Assembly: GCA_964399495.1 (NCBI GenBank)
Contig: CAYNQX010000017.1
Location: 11,591-75,590 of the forward strand
DNA from: an uncultured bacterium
GTDB taxonomy: Bacteria > Krumholzibacteriota > Krumholzibacteriia > JACNKJ01
Length of the DNA: 64,000 nucleotides
Direction: 5' to 3'
Shown: positions 12,845 through 60,891 of the stretch, one piece after another
Layout of the letters: the number at the start of each line of letters is the position of its first letter
Numbering within the stretch: position 1 is the stretch's first letter
Made by a program: the position numbers and the translations under genes
The notes under the pieces: model-generated
What the model was told of the DNA's origin: nothing
Database searches by the model: none
Seen by the model: only the letters and a program-made list of their open reading frames with translations

Positions 12845-13025
12845 TTTCAGCGAAAGAGTGACAGAGAGTGAGTCGGGGCAGGTCTCCTGACTTACGGGGG
12901 GGCTTTCGCCCGATGACCGCCGCCTTCCCGGAACGTGTCCAGTGGCTCCCTTGGCGGTCTCCCGATCACAGTGGCGCGACCGTGGCGGATTCTCACCGCG
13001 CTTCCCTATTCTACCCTCGGGACGA
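12845..13025 (-). promoter_or_regulatory. Cobalamin (AdoCbl) riboswitch in the 5' leader of the TonB-dependent receptor gene
   Basis: The minus-strand transcript carries AGGGAAgcgcGGTGAGAATCC, GCCACTG twice, and a B12-box AAGTCAGGAGACCTGCC (plus-strand 12877-12895) about 70 nt upstream of the ATG at 12804. Confidence 0.75.
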
Positions 13026-13105
13026 AACCCTCGGGTCACCTCCGACCGATGAGGCGCAAAGCATACAGCCATTGCGCCCGGCCCGCAAGGCGCATTCCTT
13101 GAGGC

Positions 13106-51681: not shown

Positions 51682-52847
51682 GGGTTCTCACCTCCATCCA
51701 TGGCCTCGGCCGCAACCGTCGCAAGGTCGCGGACCTTGAGGCCTTTCAGTTCATCGTCCGCGTCGCCCTCCTGGGCGCAGCGGAAATGGAGCTGGCACTT
51801 GGGGCAGGCGGTGACGAGGGTCTCGGCCCCCCGCTCCACCGCCTCCTTGAGTCTTGTCTCCTGCAAATGTCGGCTCACCGCGTCGCAGTGCAGCCAGCCG
51901 TTGGTTCCGCAGCAGGGCGCCTCCTCGCCGTGCCGCTCGAACTCGCGAAAATCGTCACCGTAGATCCTGTTCAGCACGGCGCGCGCCGCGTCGCCGGCTC
52001 GGAGCTGGCGGCTCAGGCGGCAGGAGTCGTGGAAGCTCACCGTTTCCGCCAGAGGTCTCAGGCTCAGCTCACCGGTCTCGAGTTTGCCCGCCAGGTACTC
52101 GCTGAGGTGCATGACCTCGACGTCCAGCGAGACGCCGAGCGTGGGGTAGACGTCGCGGAGCATGTGCGCGCACTCGGGGCAGGAGGCCACGAGACGGGTC
52201 GCGCCCGTGGCGGCGATCGACTCGGCGTTGCGGCGGGCCAGCTCGGCGGCGGTGGCCTCGTCGCCGCTCCAGTAGAGGTCGTGTCCGCAGCAGCGTTCGC
52301 GGGACATCAACGCCGGCGTCTCGCCGAGGCCGGACAGCAGACGCAGGCTGCTTCTCGCGATCGCGCTGCTGTCGGACTCGAGGTGCGTGAAGTAGGCGTC
52401 GAAGAAAGGCAAGCAGCCGCTGAAGTAGACGAGATCCCCCGTCTCGGCCGCGGGCGCGCCCTTCGGCACCCAGTCGAGCCGACGCTGACCCTTGCCGTCC
52501 CGCGCCATCAGCCGGTGCAGGCTCTCGAGGGCGCCGCCGTGAGAGCAGGGAAAGGGAGTACCGGCGCCCGCAAACTCCTCGCCGCGGCTAAGGCGAGCGA
52601 AGCCGTTGTAGTCCACGTCCGAGGGGCAACGACGCGTGCAGAGCCCGCAGGTCAGACACTGTGCGAGTCGATGGGGAGCCTTCTCCGCCGCCTCGCCGCG
52701 GTCCGCCTGTCCGCTCACCCGGGTGTAGACCAGCAGGCGCGGCGAGAAGTTCTCGTCGTGAAGGGCCACGGGACAGACCGCGGTGCACTTGCCGCAATCG
52801 AGGCAGTAGTAGGCGCGGCTTTCGCGGATACTCGGCGCGAGGCTCAC
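51675..52847 (-). CDS. HdrD/HdrCB-like subunit (2x[4Fe-4S] ferredoxin plus two CCG domains)
   Basis: [25 protein letters not shown], then CCG motifs (...CCGHD..., ...CPKCQ...). Confidence 0.75.
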
Positions 52848-55261
52848 GAGGACACCTCCTGCTCTGCCGGAGCGGGATCGAGGTCGAGGCGTCCCCGACC
52901 GCGCACGCCTTCGATGAAGTCGCCGAGGATCTCGGGCAGCACGTGGATCTCGCCGCGGTGGAAGAGCCTCATGTCGAATCGCTCGGAGTCAACACCCAGC
53001 AGGCCGAGGATCCCCTGGAGCCTGGCGACGTGTCCGAGGAAGGTCTGGTTGCCCGTGCGATAGTGGCACTCCCCCTCGGCGCAGCCGGTGACGAAGACCC
53101 CGTCGGCCCCCGCCTCGAAGGCCGAGAGGATGAAGGCCGGGTGGATCCGACCGGTGCAGAGCGTGTCCATGATTCGCAGGGAGGGCGGCATCTCGTCCAG
53201 ACGAGACGCGGCCAGCGGGAAGCACCAGTTGCAGGAGAGCAGGAGAATGCGCGAGGCGCCCAGGGGCGGATCGGGTGCGAGCAGCGCGGAGATCTCGTCG
53301 ATCATGCCCTGGTGACCGTAGTGGTCCGCGATCATGGCGCCGGTCGGGCAGACCGACGCGCAGCTGCCGCAGCTCTTGCAGAACTCGGGGAACACCCTCG
53401 CCGCCGAACCTCCACCGGTGCCCTCCATGATCCGGATGGCGTCGTAGGGACAGGCGGTCACGCAATCCCCGCAGGCGCGGCAGAGCCGTTCGTCCACCTT
53501 GCACAGCAGGGGCGAGAGCTCCCACTCGCTGCGGTGATCGCCGCCGGCGGCCAGGCCCTGCCCCGGCCAGGTGAGGCTCACCGGACGCGGCTCGAGGGCC
53601 AGGGGGAACTCCTCGGGGTCGTTGGGCACGCGCACCAGCGTAGGTCCCATGGGATGGCCGTTCGTCTCGCCGGCGGGACGCAGGAGCGCGATGCGGTGGC
53701 GGCACTCGTCGGCGCAGCTGCCGCACTCCTGGCAGGGCCCGCAGCGGAGGCAGCGCAGGGCCTCCTCCCTGGCCGCATCCTCGTGGTAGCCGAGCTCCAC
53801 CTCCCGGAACCCTTTGCGCTCCTCGACCGGCAGCACCTGCTGCTGCCTGCGCAGTCGTTTCCGGGGCGAGCGGGGCAGGATGCCCAGTTCCATCGGTCGC
53901 GGCGGCGAGGGCCCCAGCAGAGGACGCCCACGCAGGTAGGCATGAATCGACTCCGCGGCGCGATGGCCCTGAGCGATGGCGCCGATGACGGTGTCGGGGC
54001 CGAGCACGAGGTCGCCGGCGGCGAACACCCCCTCCACGCCGGTGGCCAGCGTGTCCTCGTCGGCCACCAGGGTTCCCCACTTGCTGCGCTCGAAACCGTC
54101 GCCCTTGGGCAGCAGCGAGAAGTCCGCCTCCTGGCTGATGGCGGTGACGATGAGGTCGGCCTTCAGGTCGAAGAACTCGCCTCGGATCGGCACGGGGCGC
54201 GGCCGCCCGCTCTCGTCGGCGGCCACCAGCTTCATGGCCTGGCAGCGCAGGCCCTTGACGCGACCGCCCTTGCCCAGGACCTCCGTGGGCGCGGCGAGGA
54301 AGCGGAACTTCACGCCCTCGCGCTCGGCGTCCTGCACCTCGTCGATGACAGCCGGCATCTCCGAGCGCGTGCGGCGGTAGACCACCGTCACTTTGAGCCC
54401 GAGACGCTTGCCCGTGCGGGCCGCGTCCATGGCGCTCATGCCGCCGCCCACCACGAGCAGGCTCTTGCCCGAAGGCAGGGGCAGCTTGCGCTCGATCATC
54501 CGGAGAAACTGCACGCAGTCGAAGACACCCAGATTCTCCCGCTCGCCGTCCACGCCCAGGCGCTTGCCGAGCTGGGCGCCCACCGCCAGAAGCACGGCGC
54601 CGAAGCCCTCGTCGTGGAGGTCGTCCAGGCTCAGATCGCGACCGAAGGTGACGCCCGTGCGGAACTCGACGCCGAGCTGCGCGATGTGGTTCACCTCTTT
54701 GTGAATCACCCTGCGCGGCAGACGGAACGACGGGATACACTGGTTGAGCATGCCGCCCGGCTCGTCGGCCATCTCGAACAGGGTGACGCCGTAGCCCTCG
54801 CGCACGAGGTCGAAGGCCGCCGCCAGGCCCGCGGGACCGCCGCCCACCACCGCCACGCGCTCTTCGTGGTGGCGAGGCGCCGGGCGCGGAGGCACGCTGG
54901 GGTGTTCGTCCTCCCAGTCGGAGACGAAGCGCTTGAGCAGGCGGATCGCCACGGCCTCGTCCTGTTCGGAGCGCTGGCAGGCCAGCTCGCAGGGGTGGGT
55001 GCAGACCCGGCCGCAGATGCCGGGCAGAGGGCAGCGCTCCCGCACCAGATCCACCGCCTCCTGCATGCGGCCCTGGGCGATGAGTCCGATGTAGCCCTTC
55101 ACGTCCACGCCGGCGGGGCAGGCCGCGTGGCAGGGCGAGTCGGCGAGACGGTGCAGCGAGTAGTTGTGGCCGCCGCCGGGGAACTCGAGCTTCACCGCGC
55201 CGGCGTCCAGGGCATCCCCGAACCCTCCTCGCGACATCGATGTTCCCGCTCCGCCGTACAC
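52844..55261 (-). CDS. HdrL-like large flavoprotein: GltD-type NAD(P)H oxidoreductase fused to a 2x[4Fe-4S] ferredoxin and an MvhD domain
   Basis: 805 aa. Two Rossmann motifs (VVGGGPAGL, VVGGGMSAMD), then CLRCGPCQECGSC / CRACGDCVTACP, and a C-terminal MvhD (LLLSCNWCFPLAASRL...GCAEGECHY). Confidence 0.75.
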   Translation of the reverse strand: MYGGAGTSMSRGGFGDALDAGAVKLEFPGGGHNYSLHRLADSPCHAACPAGVDVKGYIGLIAQGRMQEAVDLVRERCPLPGICGRVCTHPCELACQRSEQDEAVAIRLLKRFVSDWEDEHPSVPPRPAPRHHEERVAVVGGGPAGLAAAFDLVREGYGVTLFEMADEPGGMLNQCIPSFRLPRRVIHKEVNHIAQLGVEFRTGVTFGRDLSLDDLHDEGFGAVLLAVGAQLGKRLGVDGERENLGVFDCVQFLRMIERKLPLPSGKSLLVVGGGMSAMDAARTGKRLGLKVTVVYRRTRSEMPAVIDEVQDAEREGVKFRFLAAPTEVLGKGGRVKGLRCQAMKLVAADESGRPRPVPIRGEFFDLKADLIVTAISQEADFSLLPKGDGFERSKWGTLVADEDTLATGVEGVFAAGDLVLGPDTVIGAIAQGHRAAESIHAYLRGRPLLGPSPPRPMELGILPRSPRKRLRRQQQVLPVEERKGFREVELGYHEDAAREEALRCLRCGPCQECGSCADECRHRIALLRPAGETNGHPMGPTLVRVPNDPEEFPLALEPRPVSLTWPGQGLAAGGDHRSEWELSPLLCKVDERLCRACGDCVTACPYDAIRIMEGTGGGSAARVFPEFCKSCGSCASVCPTGAMIADHYGHQGMIDEISALLAPDPPLGASRILLLSCNWCFPLAASRLDEMPPSLRIMDTLCTGRIHPAFILSAFEAGADGVFVTGCAEGECHYRTGNQTFLGHVARLQGILGLLGVDSERFDMRLFHRGEIHVLPEILGDFIEGVRGRGRLDLDPAPAEQEVSS

Positions 55262-55285
55262 TGCGCACCTCCCCGGCGCTCGTGG

Positions 55286-55840
55286 TCAGACCACGGCCGT
55301 CATCTGGGCCCGGCCGTGGGCCAGGCCGGCCTCGAAGGCCTTCAGGTTGAGTTCCTCGGTGCCCGACGGCACCGACGCCGCCACCGCCTTCCTGGCCGCC
55401 TCCTCGTCGACGATCCCGGTGACGGCCGTGAAGAAGCCCACCATCACGATGTTCTGGATCAACTTGCGGCCCAGCTCTTCGGCCATCCGCGTGGAGGGAA
55501 TGCGGAACACGTGAACGCCGGCCGGCGGGTCGTCGACCTGCACGAGCTCCTCCTCGATGAGCAGCAGACCGCCCTCCTTCAGCTCGGGGCTGAACTTGCT
55601 GTACGCCTCCTGGCTCATGCAGATGAGCACGTTCGGCGCGCTGACGTAGGGGTAGAGGATCGGATCCGTGTTCACGACGAGCTGCGCGCTGCAGGCGCTG
55701 CCCCGCGCCTCGGGCCCGAAGCTCTGCGTGAGCGTGGCGTGACCCTCGTCGAAGATGGACGCGGCCTTGCCGATGATGATGCCCATCAGGATCACGCCCT
55801 GGCCGCCGAAGCCGCCGATCTTAACTTCGCTGGTCTGCAC
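55286..55840 (-). CDS. 2-oxoacid:ferredoxin oxidoreductase gamma subunit
   Basis: 184 aa; IGGFGGQGVILMG...; GTG start overlapping the beta-subunit gene. Confidence 0.85.
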   Translation of the reverse strand: MQTSEVKIGGFGGQGVILMGIIIGKAASIFDEGHATLTQSFGPEARGSACSAQLVVNTDPILYPYVSAPNVLICMSQEAYSKFSPELKEGGLLLIEEELVQVDDPPAGVHVFRIPSTRMAEELGRKLIQNIVMVGFFTAVTGIVDEEAARKAVAASVPSGTEELNLKAFEAGLAHGRAQMTAVV

Positions 55841-56720
55841 AGCAGCAACCTCCGTACTCCTCGTACGCGTCGCCGAACCGCGACCGGTACTGGTCGTTCA
55901 TCCGCTCCAGGAAAGTGGGACGGCTCTTCTCCACGAACTCGCCGCAGATGATCTTCTGCTGGTAGTCGATGTCCACGTCCCGCGTGTTCGCCCCGTGCTT
56001 GATCTCCGTGGAGTCCTGGTAGAATTTCAGCAGGCTGCGTCCGTCGCCGAGCTTGTTCCGGCGTCCGTAGAGCGTGGCGCAGGGAGCGATGACCTCGAGA
56101 AAGGTGAAGCCGGGCAGCGTCAGGGCCTTCACCATCGAGTCGATGAGGCGCCGGAAGTGCAGCACCGTCCAGCGCGCCACGTACACCGCCCCGCAGGACT
56201 CGGCGAGGAAGGGCAGGTTGAAGGGCGCGTCGTAGCTGCCGAAGGGCGCCGTGGAGGCGATGGCCGTCGTGGGCGTGGTCGGCCCCTGCTGGCCGCCGGT
56301 CATCGCATAGGTGAAGTTGTTCACGCAGATGCAGACGAGATCCTGGTTGCGCCTCGCGGCATGGATGAAGTGGTTGCCGCCGATCGCCGTGAGATCGCCG
56401 TCGCCGCTGAACACCACCACCTTGAGCTCCGGCCGCGACAGCTTGAGCCCCGTGGCGAAGGGGATCGGACGGCCGTGGGTGGTGTGGTAGGAATCCAGGT
56501 TCATGTAACCCGCCACGCGCCCCGTGCAGCCGATTCCCGACACGATGGATACCATGTCGGGATCGAGCCCCGCCTTCTCGACGGCCGCCGCGAAACAGTT
56601 CACCGCGGTGCCGATGCCGCAGGAGGGGCACCAGATGTGCGGCATCCGGTCCATGCGCAGCATGGATTCCATGGGATGCTCGGGACTCGCCTCGATTTCG
56701 CTCAGGATGTCTGTCGACAC
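55821..56720 (-). CDS. 2-oxoacid:ferredoxin oxidoreductase beta subunit (TPP-binding)
   Basis: WCPSCGIG ... GDGD..AIGGNH (TPP motif). GTG start with GGAGG. The track ORF is over-extended into the alpha-subunit gene. Confidence 0.85.
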   Translation of the reverse strand: MSTDILSEIEASPEHPMESMLRMDRMPHIWCPSCGIGTAVNCFAAAVEKAGLDPDMVSIVSGIGCTGRVAGYMNLDSYHTTHGRPIPFATGLKLSRPELKVVVFSGDGDLTAIGGNHFIHAARRNQDLVCICVNNFTYAMTGGQQGPTTPTTAIASTAPFGSYDAPFNLPFLAESCGAVYVARWTVLHFRRLIDSMVKALTLPGFTFLEVIAPCATLYGRRNKLGDGRSLLKFYQDSTEIKHGANTRDVDIDYQQKIICGEFVEKSRPTFLERMNDQYRSRFGDAYEEYGGCCCADQRS

Positions 56721-57874
56721 GCGTTCGCCTCCCTGATTTGCTCGAGGATCTGCTCCGGCTCGTGCACGGTGCCGCCGCCGTGACCGGCGAGGAAGGTCTT
56801 CGCCCGCCCGGCGGCGCAGCGCTCCACCTCGTAGAAGATCTGTCCGTAGTTGAGTTCGGCGACGACGAAGGCGTCGACCCGTTCGGCGAGCTCGGCGATG
56901 CGGCGTTCGGGGAAGGGCCACAGGGTGACGAGCCGCAGGGTCCCCACGCGGATCCCCTCCTCCTTCGCGAGCTGCACGGCCCTCTCGGTGACGCGGCTCG
57001 TGATGCCGTAGGACAGCACCACGACGTCGGCGTCCTCGACCTCCCGCTCCTCGATCCGGATGATCTCCTCGGCGCTCAGGCGGATCTTGTCCACCAGGCG
57101 CCGCACCAGTTTCTCCTGGGCCTCGGGCGTCACCACCGGGTAGCCGCGCTCGTCGTGGGTGAGGCCGGTCACGTGCATGCGGTGGCCGTCGCCGGCCTTG
57201 CCCATGGGCGGCACCATGTCCGCGTCCGCCGCAAAGGGCAGGTAGTCCTTGCCCTTCTTGTCCGTCCAGCGGCGGGGCTCCACCGTGAGCGTTTCCGCCT
57301 CGGGAATCACGACCTTCTCGGTCATGTGGCCGACGCACTCGTCCATCATGAACATCACCGGCACGCGATAGCGCTCCGACAGATTGAAGGCGTCGATCAT
57401 CAGGTCGAAGCACTCCTGAGGCGAGCTGGGCGAGATCGCGATGATCTCGTAGTCGCCGTGGCTGCCCCAGCGCGCCTGCATGACGTCGGCCTGGCCCGTG
57501 AGCGTGGGCAGGCCGGTCGACGGCCCGCCGCGCTGCACGTTGACGAACACGCAGGGCGTCTCGGTCATCACCGCCAGGCCGATGTGCTCCATCATCAGGG
57601 AGAAGCCGGGGCCGCTGGTGACGGTCATCGCCTTCGCCCCGCCCCACACCGCGCCCTGGATGGCGATGGAGCTGGCGAGCTCGTCCTCCATCTGGATGAA
57701 CATCGCGCCCACCTCGGGGGCGCGGGCGCTGTAGCGTTCCACGACCTCGGTGGAGGGCGTGATGGGATAGCCGGCCACGAAGCGGCAGCCCGCGGCCAGC
57801 GCGCCCTCGCAGGCGGCGTGGTCGCCGTCGAGGAAGTGGATGCCGGTGAGCACGCCCTTGGGGTCCGCCTTCAT
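56702..57874 (-). CDS. 2-oxoacid:ferredoxin oxidoreductase alpha subunit
   Basis: About 390 aa from MKADPKG (GGAGG RBS); GYPITPSTEV and TSGPGFSLM motifs. Confidence 0.85.
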   Translation of the reverse strand: MKADPKGVLTGIHFLDGDHAACEGALAAGCRFVAGYPITPSTEVVERYSARAPEVGAMFIQMEDELASSIAIQGAVWGGAKAMTVTSGPGFSLMMEHIGLAVMTETPCVFVNVQRGGPSTGLPTLTGQADVMQARWGSHGDYEIIAISPSSPQECFDLMIDAFNLSERYRVPVMFMMDECVGHMTEKVVIPEAETLTVEPRRWTDKKGKDYLPFAADADMVPPMGKAGDGHRMHVTGLTHDERGYPVVTPEAQEKLVRRLVDKIRLSAEEIIRIEEREVEDADVVVLSYGITSRVTERAVQLAKEEGIRVGTLRLVTLWPFPERRIAELAERVDAFVVAELNYGQIFYEVERCAAGRAKTFLAGHGGGTVHEPEQILEQIREANACRQTS

Positions 57875-58155
57875 CGCGCCACCTCCTCGGCCGCCGCGTC
57901 GGGGGCGGGATCGCAGAAGATCGCGAACTCCGGGCAGATCATCTCGCAGAGATCGCAGTTGACGCAGAGTTCGGCCTGTTTGGTGAAGGGCGGGTGATAG
58001 CCCTTGGCGTTGAACTCCTCGGAGAGCTCGAGGACGTCTCGCGGGCAGTAGTCGACGCAGAAGCCGCAGCCCTTGCATCGCTCGCGGATGATCGTGACCT
58101 CGCCTCGCGGCAGGTTCAGCTTGTCGCTGTCGAAGGGCTCTCGCCAGAGTTTCAT
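57871..58155 (-). CDS. 2-oxoacid:ferredoxin oxidoreductase delta subunit (2x[4Fe-4S] ferredoxin)
   Basis: 94 aa from MKLWREP: CKGCGFCVDYCP and CVNCDLCEMICP; GGAGG RBS. Confidence 0.8.
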   Translation of the reverse strand: MKLWREPFDSDKLNLPRGEVTIIRERCKGCGFCVDYCPRDVLELSEEFNAKGYHPPFTKQAELCVNCDLCEMICPEFAIFCDPAPDAAAEEVAR

Positions 58156-58181
58156 GCAGGACCTCCGCGCACTTCCAGGCA

Positions 58182-58208
58182 TGAAAAAACCCCGGGGTGG
58201 CCCGGGGT
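58182..58208 (-). terminator. Rho-independent terminator/attenuator 35 nt upstream of the korD start
   Basis: Minus strand: CCCCGGGCCACCCCGGGG followed by TTTTTTC. It directly abuts the TGA of a 34-codon ORF. Confidence 0.6.
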
Positions 58209-58312
58209 CAGAACACGTCTGCCTTGGTTTCGGTCTTCTCCTCGACCACACCGACACGACCCGAATAGGCCGATCGATAGCCGGGACAGGCAAGGAGCAG
58301 CAGTCGTTTCAT
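58208..58312 (-). CDS. Small ORF (34 aa, MKRLLLLACPGYRSAYSGRVGVVEEKTETKADVF); candidate leader peptide or small lipoprotein
   Basis: ATG with a weak RBS; the stop codon is fused to the terminator hairpin. Confidence 0.3.
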   Translation of the reverse strand: MKRLLLLACPGYRSAYSGRVGVVEEKTETKADVF

Positions 58313-58431
58313 CGTATTCCGCTCGGTGATGCGTACTGCGTTCGTCCAGGGTTTTCCTTCATTCAGGATAATCTTGCCTTTATTCGGAGGATCTGGCAAG
58401 GGGCCCACGCGGTATTTTGAGGAGTTTCGGG

Positions 58432-58465
58432 AAACGTAAAACCCTCCCCGGGAGACGGGGAGGGC
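58432..58465 (-). terminator. Rho-independent terminator
   Basis: Minus strand: CCCTCCCCG-TCTCC-CGGGGAGGG followed by TTTTACGTTT. Confidence 0.6.
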
Positions 58466-58549
58466 GAATAGGGTCGGCATCGGTGACGTTGGGTTTCCCC
58501 CGGCGGGGTGATCCCAAGTCAGCGTCAGACGACGCTTGGGAGATATCCC

Positions 58550-58594
58550 CTATGGGGACGTCACCTCCACCAAGCCAAATCTGTCTGAACTCAC
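58550..58594 (-). CDS. 14-codon ORF with a perfect extended Shine-Dalgarno (AGGAGGTGATCA)
   Basis: GGAGAGGAGGTGATCAA-GTG AGT TCA GAC AGA TTT GGC TTG GTG GAG GTG ACG TCC CCA TAG. Could be a leader peptide or regulatory ORF. Confidence 0.25.
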   Translation of the reverse strand: MSSDRFGLVEVTSP

Positions 58595-58746
58595 TTGATC
58601 ACCTCCTCTCCGGGCGTACCGACGATTGGTGAGACCCAACTCACCCGGCCTCTTATCCGCCCGAGCCTTCGAGGCCGCCGCACTGGCGTGCGAACGAAGT
58701 CCCGAGAATGATGAGTGATTCCTCGGAAGCTGTACAGCGAAAAAGA

Positions 58747-59115
58747 TCAGTCCTCGCTGGGCCGACCGCGCAGCCGCTTGCGCTCGCCCTTGCGACGCTT
58801 GGCCTCCAGGCGCCGGTGCCGCGCCGCCGCGGTGACCTTCGTGGGCTTGCGCCGCTTCGGTTTGCGATTGAGAAGACGGAGCCGCTCGATGAGCCGTTCC
58901 ATGGCGAGCTTGCGGTTGCGCAGCTGGGAGCGATGGTCGGCCGCGATCACCGTGACGCCGCTGGGCGGGTGGTGCAGGCGCACCGCGCTGTCGCTGGTGT
59001 TGCGATGCTGCCCGCCTGGGCCGGACGCGCGGTACACGGTGACCTCCACCTCGCGGGCGAGCTGGTCGGGATCGGTGCTGTAGGGCGGTGCTTGATGGGA
59101 CATGGCGACCGGCAC
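58747..59115 (-). CDS. arfB: Alternative ribosome-rescue factor ArfB (class I release-factor GGQ domain, peptidyl-tRNA hydrolase)
   Basis: GPGGQHRNTSDSAVRLHH followed by a basic C-terminal tail. Confidence 0.8.
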   Translation of the reverse strand: MPVAMSHQAPPYSTDPDQLAREVEVTVYRASGPGGQHRNTSDSAVRLHHPPSGVTVIAADHRSQLRNRKLAMERLIERLRLLNRKPKRRKPTKVTAAARHRRLEAKRRKGERKRLRGRPSED

Positions 59116-59217: not shown

Positions 59218-60891
59218 TCAGAGCAGGTAGAGGGAGTCCAGGGCGTCGAAGAGCTCGTCCTTCTCGGCCTCGAGTTCCCTCAGCTTGGCCAGGGCCGTGC
59301 GCTCGTCGCCCTGATTGTGCGCCTGCACGATCTCGCGGGCGATTCCGTGCACCTTCTCGTGGTGACGTCCCACCGTGGCGAATACTTTGGATTCGGAGAG
59401 CGGATCGCCGAGGAGGCCGTCGTACCACTTGCCGAAGTCGCACTCGTGATGGGACTTCAGTTCGCCCTCATGCATGGCGCCGACGCCCTGGAGGAGCTTC
59501 GTCAGGCGAACCCACCAGGCGTTGTGGGCCTGCTTCACCATGTTGATGTCGAAGCGCCCTTCGGCCAGTTCGTACTGATCGAGGATCTCCTCGAGGCGCC
59601 CGGAGATGCGCGACAGCTCGACGGCGAAACGGTGGGTCTCCCCGGCGCCGACCGCCGTGTTCGCGGCGCCCTGATTGACCTCGGCGATGCTGGCGGAGAT
59701 CTCCTCCACGCCGGCGGTGACTGTCTGCACCGTCGTCGCGATCTGCTCCGCGGCGTCCGATACCGTCGAGATGCTGCGCGTGATCTCGTTCGTCGTGGCG
59801 GCCTGCTCCTCCACCGCGCTGGCGATGGACTGGGAGGCCACGTTCACCTCGCCGATCGTCCCGGAGATCGTGTTGATGGATTCCAGCACCTTGCGGGTGT
59901 TGGACTGCATGTTCTCGATGCGGTGCGCGATCTCCTCGGTGGCCTGCGCGGTCTGCCGCGAGAGTTCCTTGACCTCGTTGGCCACCACCGTGAAGCCCTT
60001 GCCGGCGTCACCCGCGCTGGCGGCTTCGATGGTGGCGTTCAGGGCGAGCAGATTCGTCTGGTCGGCGATGTTCTTGATGGTGTCGAGAACGATGCCGATA
60101 TCACTGGAGGATGCATCCAGTTCGGACATGGCCTCTCGGGTTTCGTTTACCTGGGACTCCGCGGCGTTGGACACCATTGAAGCGTGATTGCAGTTCTTGG
60201 CCACCTCGGCGAGCGAGGTGTCCATTTCCTCGATGGCGGTCGCGATGGTGGCGACCGACCCCGACATCTCGTCGGCGGAACCGGCCACGGTGATCATGCT
60301 GTTGCTGATGCCCTCGGAGGATTCACGGACGGCGTGGGTCTGGCTCTTGGATTGATCGGCCAGAGCCACCATCTCGGTGGATGTGGAGGAGAGCCTGTCC
60401 GAGGCCTCTCCGAGCGTGGCGCGGGTGTTCACCAGTTCCCTGAACACCAGGTTCAGGCTGCCGGTCATGGTGCCCATCGCCTTGCTGAACTCGCTCTTCT
60501 CCGATGCCAGATCCTCTTCCAGTGAGGCGGCCGTGGAGAAGCGTCCTTCCGACAGGATCTGGAGCATGCGCGTGCCCTCCATGAACGATCGGTTGTGGAT
60601 CCTGGAAAGCCAGGCCATCACACCGAACGCGAGGACGATGCAGACGCCTCCCATCGCAAGGGAGTTGCGCGCTCGCGCGCCCTGGTCGCTCATCATCTCG
60701 GCCAGCGCCGCGTCATCGCCGTGGGAATGCGCCGCGAACTCCGCGCGCGTCTGCCGGTGCGCCCACTCGACCGTGACGACGCCCCCCACCAACAGCAGAC
60801 AGAGAACGCCGATGCCCATCCACATCCGGGTCTTGATACTCAGTTCGATCCTCATCTCCAACCTCGTGCCAGTTGAGCTGGTGTGGTTCAT
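59218..60891 (-). CDS. Methyl-accepting chemotaxis protein with a C-terminal hemerythrin-like domain (DcrH-like)
   Basis: TM segments, HAMP, the MCP signalling domain, then H...[10 protein letters not shown]...HEKVH...; the His/Glu spacing matches a hemerythrin Fe-binding site. Confidence 0.75.

Follow-up and report, generated by a model that had tools for sequence, protein, structure and literature searches.

A conserved structured RNA element and a putative operon leader in the arfB–korD spacer of an uncultured Krumholzibacteriota bacterium

The pyrBI operon of Escherichia coli is controlled by ribosome-coupled attenuation, and trp and leu represent the classical leader-peptide attenuators. 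Small open reading frames (ORFs) also occur in the dual-function small RNAs (sRNAs) SgrS/SgrT, RNAIII/hld and SR1/SR1P. A further case is the attenuator-derived sRNA rnTrpL, which ends at the attenuator terminator and encodes peTrpL, a peptide of 14 residues (PMC7298713, PMC7968998). In Caulobacter and Methylorubrum, the functionally uncharacterised alphaproteobacterial sRNA CC2171 is expressed (bioRxiv 10.1101/2022.01.24.477521). Here we analyzed a spacer that combines short ORFs, a structured region and terminators in 64,000 nucleotides (nt) of contig CAYNQX010000017.1 (assembly GCA_964399495.1), which will be referred to as the window and which derives from an uncultured bacterium of the Krumholzibacteriota. 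The spacer lies on the minus strand between the stop codon of an arfB-like gene and the start codon of korD, the first gene of a 2-oxoacid:acceptor oxidoreductase (kor) operon, and read directly from the sequence it measures 591 nt (58746–58156).

A sequence-only reading had taken this whole spacer for a single kor leader in which two leader ORFs are combined with a pair of terminators. Its four sequence features, namely a Shine-Dalgarno (SD) site, a 14-codon ORF, a terminator T1, and a 34-codon ORF next to a second terminator T2, were all recovered at the same coordinates in the sequence itself, and the terminators also by a pattern scan. The one-leader interpretation was not borne out: T1, the structured region and the 14-codon ORF with its SD site make up a conserved module that is independent of kor. 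The spacer probably consists of two separate units, a small RNA gene (unit A) and the leader of the kor operon (unit B). The observation was thus confirmed; its interpretation found partial support as regards T2, but did not hold for the 14-codon ORF and T1.

Conservation and structure of unit A

Unit A was delimited by homologues obtained with blastn and a DNA pattern scan, by a covariance model and by the stability of its predicted fold. The features of this unit and its surroundings are the following.

58437–58701 (−): unit A, conserved structured small RNA of ~265 nt
58708–58744 (−): promoter-like element with T-tract (58744–58740), −35 TGTACA (58736–58731), 17-nt spacer and −10 CATCAT (58713–58708)
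58628–58693 (−): 5′ domain of three hairpins, H1 (58693–58678), H2 (58677–58646) and H3 (58645–58628), identified by covariation
58612–58616 (−): CGCCC, identified by its invariance; complementary to GGGCG of the H2 loop (candidate pseudoknot) or to the SD site
58597–58607 (−): extended SD site AGGAGGTGATC, with the core GGAGGTG invariant in all aligned homologues
58550–58594 (−): 14-codon mini-ORF from GTG (58594–58592) to TAG (58552–58550), encoding MSSDRFGLVEVTSP; frame and stop conserved
58474–58573 (−): long-range helices LR1 (58573–58569 with 58478–58474) and LR2 (58565–58558 with 58489–58482), identified by covariation
58441–58465 (−): T1, predicted intrinsic terminator of the small RNA, a 10-bp stem followed by TTT; pattern scan and covariation

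Homologues were sought by scanning representative genomes for KorA, by blastn of the spacer, at loci of ArfB homologues and by a metagenome pattern scan derived from the invariant blocks; L001–L108 are the labels of the related and comparison loci. The KorA scan gave L001 and L002 as the closest loci, both with 83% identity, L002 being named Candidatus Krumholzibacteriota. Altogether 25 unit A sequences were gathered, 22 of them distinct, and all 22 distinct versions are located on contigs whose nearest named relatives are Krumholzibacteriota. The spacer is identical in three other contigs of the same organism, population variants that add no information.

A covariance model (R1) was built on a manually specified nested structure. 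R1 scored 200–277 bits and found exactly one copy in each positive locus, and it gave no match in ~23 kor loci of other phyla. A phage origin was rejected, as the six viral contigs matched by a relaxed pattern do not fit the covariance model and represent chance matches. In the model-based alignment A6, 88% of the cells pair, compared to 37–51% when the partners are slid by 1–3 columns. Both sides change in 22 of the 54 pairs, and none of 500 shuffles reached any of the observed measures. The predicted fold of 58701–58437 was likewise exceptional (z = −4.4), none of 200 shuffled sequences being as stable. A longer protein on either strand was rejected, since spacings outside the mini-ORF vary by non-multiples of three and the covariation is RNA-like.

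The well-supported helices are H1, H2, H3, LR1, LR2 and T1. H1, H2 and H3 are 95%, 98% and 100% paired with two-sided changes in three, four and two pairs, respectively; GGUGAG/CUCACC, for instance, is replaced by GGUGUU/AACACC in L081. The loops of H2 and H3 contain the invariant sequences GGGCG and UGGGU. Through LR1 and LR2, the second half of the mini-ORF is base-paired with the stretch just before T1, LR1 being 98% paired (one pair is GC in 11 and AU in nine sequences) and LR2 100% (one pair is GC in nine, GU in seven and AU in six). Together they enclose a hairpin that carries the stop codon (58557–58547) and two further hairpins; all three inner hairpins vary in length and are captured poorly by the alignment. 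The invariant UGGGU of the H3 loop (58628–58645) is exactly complementary to an invariant ACCCA in the 3′ domain (58490–58494), neither side varying, and the two could form a long-range loop contact.

Unit A bears the invariant SD site AGGAGGTG. The 3′ end of canonical bacterial 16S ribosomal RNA (rRNA) reads ...GAUCACCUCCU, and AGGAGGTGATC is complementary to it. Across the versions a GTG or TTG start codon is found at optimal spacing from GGAGGTG, and none of 18 distinct versions interrupts the frame that follows, in contrast to the two alternative frames, which hold stops in 17 and 8 of the 18. In all 17 distinct tails codon 15 or 16 of this frame is TAG, TGA or TAA, the other frames having no stop there, and the stop codon sits in a hairpin loop whose sequence differs widely between versions. 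A second GGAGGTG inside the ORF follows the SD site at 38 nt in 20 of the 22 sequences and at 37 nt in two; the spacing from the SD site to the ORF is constant, and the other spacings of unit A vary by 1–8 nt. Those peptide residues that are invariant coincide with helix LR2. Stalling at a Pro-stop end was rejected as a conserved feature, several versions ending in -SPL, -SPR or -SLR. In our reading, what selection would preserve is the loading of ribosomes and the site at which they terminate, and not the peptide.

Two segments might sequester the SD site. For the invariant CGCCC, both pairing partners are constant throughout the 21 of 21 rows, which leaves no room for covariation, and RNAalifold pairs CGCCC with GGAGGUG. 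GAUCACC (58513–58507) is complementary to the SD extension GGUGAUC, with only wobble-type one-sided changes. The resulting helix crosses both LR1 and LR2, and it would thus have to belong to a pseudoknot or to alternative states.

The best sigma-70-like hexamer pair ends 14–17 nt before H1 in 19 of 20 distinct homologues, with hexamers of differing sequence, which places the putative transcript start of unit A near 58701. At the other end, T1 has the G+C-rich hairpin and U-tract of a predicted intrinsic terminator (8 of its 10 pairs are GC); it is 96% paired, and the homologues show two-sided changes in 9 of the 10 pairs. Every version of unit A has such a G+C-rich hairpin at its 3′ end, mostly followed by a U-tract. 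T1 stayed in the minimum-energy fold of all 20 sequences when a ribosome was placed at the stop codon or the whole ORF was masked, which argues against an antiterminator for T1. In L085 and L086, promoter-like sequences read by eye (TTGCAA-16/17-TACAAT or TACAGT) follow the T1 hairpin and precede ahpC. Since T1 is kept in the constrained folds and promoter-like sites lie beyond it, we read T1 as a constitutive terminator of unit A.

The position of unit A in the genome changes. Window positions 58698–58465 matched L001 with 76% identity in blastn, and the element lies there upstream of arfB, not between arfB and korD; in L002, arfB and korD are present together with T2, and the element is lacking. 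L082 carries an element 86% identical to that of the window, with DNA on both sides that is not alignable. The order is arfB-element-korD in the window, L081 and L082, element-arfB in L001, L087, L089 and L099, element-98aa-arfB in L090, L091 and L105, and element-ahpC-...-arfB in L085, L086 and L098, with kilobases separating element and arfB in L085 and L086. On other metagenome contigs the element precedes a gene for a GDSL hydrolase, a nitroreductase, a Pyr_redox_2 oxidoreductase, pyruvate dehydrogenase (PDH) E1, a coiled-coil lipoprotein or an IS91 transposase. These varied positions and neighbours, together with the non-alignable flanks in L082, indicate that unit A moves and is conserved as a module: its fold, frame and stop position are kept, its genomic position changes and its neighbours vary.

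An obligatory partnership with arfB was ruled out, as in ~10 metagenome loci the element has no arfB nearby. Conversely, three further arfB lineages (61–69% identity) lacked the element in flanks searched for 4 kb upstream and 0.2–4 kb downstream. Redox-related genes (AhpC, nitroreductase, Pyr_redox_2, PDH E1, KOR/Hdr-like) often adjoin the small RNA, in numbers too few for a statistical test; they were located at L085 435–1031, L086 8911–9609, L100 773–1444 (reverse strand), L104 3042–4382, L102 4798–7551 (reverse strand) and window 52844–58155. We regard both the arfB linkage and the redox theme as leads, not findings. In one clade a conserved ORF of 98 residues, which has no Pfam match and overlaps the arfB start, lies between the small RNA and arfB (L090 9715–10011; L091 2424–2720; L086 9715–10011; L105 1925–2221).

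When the window was searched with the 4227 models of Rfam 15, no family reached its gathering threshold for unit A or any other element of the spacer. Apart from sub-threshold matches to CC2171, nothing relevant was found at E ≤ 10 with the element alone or at E ≤ 5 with four homologous loci. ARAGORN detected neither a transfer-messenger RNA nor a transfer RNA in the window, and a search of the literature on arfB leaders and Krumholzibacteriota RNA yielded nothing relevant. Unit A is therefore a probable new RNA family, absent from the RNA family catalogues. If this holds true, an uncultivated phylum contributes a structured RNA family that is new and well supported.

Possible functions of unit A

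We commit to the reading that unit A is a translation-engaged regulatory RNA, with transcript ends, translation and switching as predicted from the sequence. It is probably a small RNA gene that stands on its own, its transcript starting at a dedicated promoter and stopping at T1. Ribosomes would load on the SD site, their access being gated by alternative pairing of this site with CGCCC or GAUCACC; translation of the mini-ORF would open LR1 and LR2, and the ribosome would have to terminate in the hairpin loop. The act and the place of translation would matter rather than the peptide, a conformational change in the RNA serving as the signal. As output, the RNA might act in trans or, where T1 is weak, modulate read-through. 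If this is correct, selection acts on ribosome start and stop sites and not on a peptide, a design little studied outside the classical attenuators.

Several observations weigh against this reading. The SD-sequestering helix and both candidate pseudoknots are without two-sided covariation. The promoters are consensus-poor, and a consensus scan listed none, including the site of unit A with 8 of 12 matches. In the unpaired codons 2–7 of the mini-ORF the entropies of the first, second and third positions are 2.52, 4.13 and 3.59, so that the second position is the most variable and there is no third-position excess; the case for translation is consequently made by the SD site, start, frame and stop pattern only. 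Furthermore, in L001, L096 and L097 the next gene starts 17–50 nt past T1, which has a poor U-tract there, and owing to this short gap and poor U-tract the element in these loci may also act as a 5′ leader.

This last point leads to the possibility that unit A is generally a leader acting in cis, either a riboswitch-like sensor or a translation-dependent attenuator, with conditional termination at T1. We consider this unlikely, although it accounts for several arrangements: in L001/L087 arfB starts 17 nt after a T1 lacking a good U-tract, in L096, L097, L101 and L103 a GDSL hydrolase gene follows a T1 with a poor U-tract at ~45 nt, and in L099 arfB follows T1 at ~45 nt. Besides, a 5′ domain with invariant loops beside an SD site resembles an aptamer with its expression platform, and several of the downstream genes are redox-related (ahpC, nitroreductase, Pyr_redox_2, PDH E1, KOR). 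However, T1 was kept in every fold in which the ORF or the stop region was masked, the genes that follow are of mixed kinds, a transposase among them, and separate promoter-like sites lie beyond T1 in L085, L086 and the window, where in addition korD is 285 nt away from T1 with another terminator in between.

A more far-reaching version of the translation-engaged RNA would be a new class of ribosome-engaging regulatory RNA that turns a cellular signal into a conformational output, an idea we hold only tentatively and think unlikely to prove right in full. A sensor-like 5′ domain, through pseudoknots of GGGCG and UGGGU with CGCCC and ACCCA, would gate access to the maximal SD site, and translation to the fixed stop in the loop would unzip the long-range helices and switch the 3′ domain. 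The signal might be the redox state or the translational status, given the ahpC, nitroreductase, NADH-oxidase-like, KOR, PDH and ArfB-like neighbours, and Caulobacter CC2171 may represent a second, simpler case of the same design.

The conserved start, frame and in-frame stop of all versions, together with the maximal SD site, are also what would be expected if unit A were the mRNA of a functional 14-residue micropeptide, its structure serving mRNA stability or translation control. Ser3 is even kept through a switch from TCN to AGT codons in L102, and an E-V core is invariant. The positional entropies are, however, not of the coding type, with the second codon position being the most variable in codons 2–7 (2.52, 4.13, 3.59); moreover, the invariant residues coincide with LR2, and ~220 nt of non-coding sequence are conserved as strongly as the ORF or more so. 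A micropeptide gene thus appears quite improbable.

Still less credit can be given to the sequence-only reading of the entire 590-nt spacer as one kor leader, in which T1 and T2 would be attenuators and both ORFs would encode leader peptides responding to translation or redox state. It is true that every element of the spacer has the same orientation as kor and is located between arfB and korD, that the consensus scan detected no promoter within the spacer and that T2 is conserved by position. Yet in most lineages the module of SD site, mini-ORF and T1 is not near kor, and several have it upstream of arfB, L002 has arfB, korD and T2 without the module, and the module has a promoter-like site of its own as well as a T1 for which no competing structure was found.

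The kor leader and terminator T2

Downstream of unit A, the spacer contains a putative leader of the kor operon (unit B). Its features and the boundaries of the spacer are given below.

58747–58749 (−): stop codon TGA of the arfB-like gene, read from the sequence
~58399–58156 (−): unit B, putative kor operon leader, delimited from the sequence
58371–58399 (−): candidate kor promoter, TTGCCA (58399–58394), 17-nt spacer and CAAGAT (58376–58371), predicted by comparison with L081
58208–58312 (−): 34-codon ORF from ATG (58312–58310) to TGA (58210–58208), encoding MKRLLLLACPGYRSAYSGRVGVVEEKTETKADVF; kept in L081
58182–58209 (−): T2, predicted terminator with a 9-bp stem (58209–58188) and a T-run to 58182; pattern scan
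58153–58166 (−): ribosome-binding site GGAGG (58166–58162) and start codon ATG (58155–58153) of korD, read from the sequence; the protein matches 4Fe-4S families

T2 has the properties of a predicted intrinsic terminator: 7 of its 9 pairs are GC, the loop has four bases, and TTTT(TT) follows with six to eight U; folding of the 40 nt before the T-run gave approximately −18.8 kcal/mol. The stem begins inside the TGA of the 34-codon ORF. The sequence-only reading had placed T2 about 35 nt before korD; the closeness was right, the measured distances being 26 nt from the T-run and 32 nt from the end of the stem, and it was also correct that too little room is left for an ordinary promoter. A hairpin with a T-run that starts 32–39 nt before the korD ATG was found in all five lineages (the window, L081, L082, L001/L087 and L002), the hairpins being related among the window, L081 and L082 and unrelated in L001 and L002. 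Kor loci of other phyla, in which the start codons are less certain, have a terminator-like site within 150 nt upstream in 9 of ~74 cases, scattered at 23–99 nt. The kor leader of L001 (3528–3700) has two tandem hairpin and T-run terminators, the second 27 nt before korD. Because T2 is strong, leaves no room for a normal promoter and is conserved in position, it is most likely a conditional or leaky terminator metering transcription into kor. The proposal of a conditional terminator thus gained support from a strong terminator near korD in every related lineage, with hairpins of unrelated sequence. Of the two hairpins whose conservation the sequence-only reading had implied, T1 covaries, with two-sided changes in 9 of 10 pairs, and T2 is kept by position, the stems of L001 and L002 being unrelated.

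The candidate kor promoter is matched at the same place in L081 by TTGCCA-17-CACGAT, and hexamer pairs chosen by eye in L082 and L001 give leaders of similar length (~210–225 nt). None of these hexamers is a strong match to the consensus, and the site of the window is not listed by the consensus scan. According to our proposal, transcription would start at this promoter, run through a leader of ~180 nt and reach T2 26–32 nt before korD, where T2 would set how much transcription enters kor. In the window and its nearest relative, a ribosome finishing the 34-codon ORF would cover the 5′ arm of T2 and could suppress termination in a pyrBI-like manner.

As to this trigger, the claimed geometry was confirmed, as the 34-codon ORF ends with a stop codon that reaches into the base of the T2 stem both in the window and in L081, so that occlusion by a ribosome is geometrically possible. 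L081 keeps the ORF without insertions or deletions, and of the seven substitutions within codons 1–17 six are synonymous; divergence is seen in the C-terminal half. The ORF contains four consecutive Leu codons (58292–58303, minus strand; CTG CTG CTC CTT), which read TTG CTG CTC CTA in L081, with no such run in the other lineages. Every lineage has some ATG-initiated ORF of at least 34 codons that ends at, in or just after T2.

A number of results speak against ribosome control of T2. The 34-codon ORF has a weak SD site, as do the leader ORFs of all lineages, and its peptide is not conserved in L082, L001 and L002, whose ORFs at this place are unrelated. The frame extended to 90 residues matched only the same organism among 5.8 billion proteins. 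Long open frames are common in such G+C-rich DNA, which makes an ORF ending at T2 weak evidence. The fold of the kor leader is unremarkable (z = −1.65), and the minimum-energy folds of five kor leaders contain no antiterminator. A terminator lies, as in an attenuator, between the stop of the leader ORF (58208) and korD (58155) on what would be a single transcript; a conserved and efficiently translated leader ORF, which an attenuator would also have, was not found. Leader-peptide attenuation, as the sequence-only reading had suggested for T2, agrees with the geometry and is weakened by the ORF, which is kept only in the closest relative and has a weak SD site and no homologue, and by the lack of an antiterminator in the folds; of the two small ORFs, only the 14-codon one has a frame and stop kept across homologues. 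Nor did the folds show a switch between terminator and antiterminator at either site, T1 being kept in every constrained fold and the kor leaders lacking an antiterminator in their minimum-energy folds. Occlusion of the 5′ arm of T2 by a ribosome would be physically sound, and we rate it as doubtful. A conserved aptamer in the kor leader is unlikely as well, the leaders of L082, L001 and L002 not being alignable with that of the window upstream of T2.

The alternative that T2 is the constitutive terminator of a short upstream transcript for a 34-residue lipoprotein-like peptide, with a kor promoter overlapping T2 and its T-run, is very unlikely, for although the ORF begins with the loosely lipobox-like MKRLLLLAC, its N-terminal half is biased towards synonymous changes against L081 and the T-runs could feed a −10 element (for example TTTAAT in L082), the sequence of the G+C-rich hairpins holds no acceptable −35 element, the eight residues ahead of the Cys are too few for a signal peptide, no homologue of the peptide was found, and the terminator-to-ATG distance of 32–39 nt is kept in five lineages with unrelated upstream ORFs.

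In public assemblies of the same organism, gene callers place an ORF of 63 residues (L107 2205–2396) or 90 residues (L108 2124–2396) in this region. Both represent the 34-codon frame extended upstream (window 58208–58480), the longer one crossing T1, and they have no Pfam match. These calls are probably spurious, which would mean that the region is currently mis-annotated in public assemblies; unit A would be annotated there, if at all, as the spurious ORF beside it, the longer of the two overlapping T1.

Taken as a whole, the spacer is more stable than shuffled sequences (z = −2.9), and the pattern scan found three terminators compared to 1.2 ± 1.0 in shuffles. The terminator count alone is not beyond chance, and the features are significant because they are conserved.

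The genes on both sides were assigned as follows. The arfB-like gene (59115–58747, minus strand) encodes a short RF-1-domain ArfB-like protein with a GGQ motif and a basic tail. Its product scored 77.2 bits against the NCBIfam equivalog NF006718, below the cutoff of 100, and passed Pfam RF-1 with 81 bits against a cutoff of 35, which makes 'ArfB-like GGQ protein' the safe name; public sources label it only as 'peptide chain release factor-like protein'. The genes downstream specify a 2-oxoacid:acceptor oxidoreductase of four subunits (delta, alpha, beta and gamma), delta being a 2x[4Fe-4S] protein, and the alpha subunit passes the generic model NF006412, which leaves the substrate class general. 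On the 5′ side of arfB, the product of 59218–60891 (minus strand) is a methyl-accepting chemotaxis protein that bears a CZB zinc-binding domain at its C-terminus, and the same arrangement is found in L081; in L082, an Rrf2 regulator overlapping the arfB start takes the place of the chemotaxis gene. The sole Rfam match above threshold in the window is a cobalamin riboswitch aptamer (RF00174) at 12860–13059 on the minus strand (94 bits, E = 4e-22).

Comparison with known systems

Unit B resembles the pyrBI, trp and leu attenuators in that a short leader ORF is followed directly by an intrinsic terminator, which in turn immediately precedes the first structural gene. The proposed trigger corresponds to pyrBI-type coupling, in which a ribosome close behind RNA polymerase blocks the terminator hairpin, and the run of Leu codons, four in this case, recalls the leu leader. 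In contrast to pyrBI, trp and leu, no antiterminator hairpin was found in unit B, the ORF has a weak SD site and its peptide is confined to the nearest relative; furthermore, the genes encode a 2-oxoacid:ferredoxin oxidoreductase and do not form a biosynthetic operon. Unit B suggests that, in this lineage, a terminator in the leader controls entry into a central 2-oxoacid:ferredoxin oxidoreductase/Hdr-like operon. We know of no leader-terminator control of such operons.

With the dual-function and attenuator-derived sRNAs unit A shares, as judged from its sequence, a small, independently terminated transcript with a short ORF and conserved structure, and its putative own promoter and terminator are those expected of a dual-function sRNA. 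Its ORF, like that of peTrpL, has 14 codons. Unlike in the dual-function sRNAs, the ORF of unit A lies midway in a much larger conserved fold, and the peptide is weakly constrained and contains no regulatory codons.

CC2171 (RF01867) is the only Rfam family that repeatedly matched the element on the correct strand, always below threshold. The scores of 14.4 bits for the window, 31.1 for L096, 28.2 for L100 and 18.0 for L102 are far from the gathering threshold of 75, so that unit A does not belong to this family. The alignments cover only model positions 1–27 and 135–159, which comprise SD site and start as well as the terminator, and skip the interior. CC2171 has 159 positions, no counterpart of the 100-nt 5′ domain with its three hairpins, and occurs in a different phylum. 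The layouts are nevertheless alike. The CC2171 consensus starts with GAAAGGAGGUGAUCCAGUG, a maximal SD site followed by GUG at the same spacing, and the counterpart in the window is AGGAGGUGAUCAAGUG; the exact sequence AAGGAGGUGATCCAGTG is present in 12 of the 22 distinct aligned homologues, and AAGGAGGUGAUCCAGUG, again a maximal SD site with GUG, is common to the CC2171 consensus 5′ end, the window (58597–58618, minus strand) and L096 (309–487, minus strand). As this common 5′ string is largely dictated by the universal 3′ end of 16S rRNA, it does not establish homology. In CC2171, as in unit A, a long-range helix starts a few codons after the GUG, encloses sub-elements and closes before the terminator, and this layout of SD site with GUG, helix and terminator is found in the window. 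The likeness is one of design, and the same design may have been realized in two phyla. If unit A is what it seems, it would also provide a testable hypothesis for CC2171.

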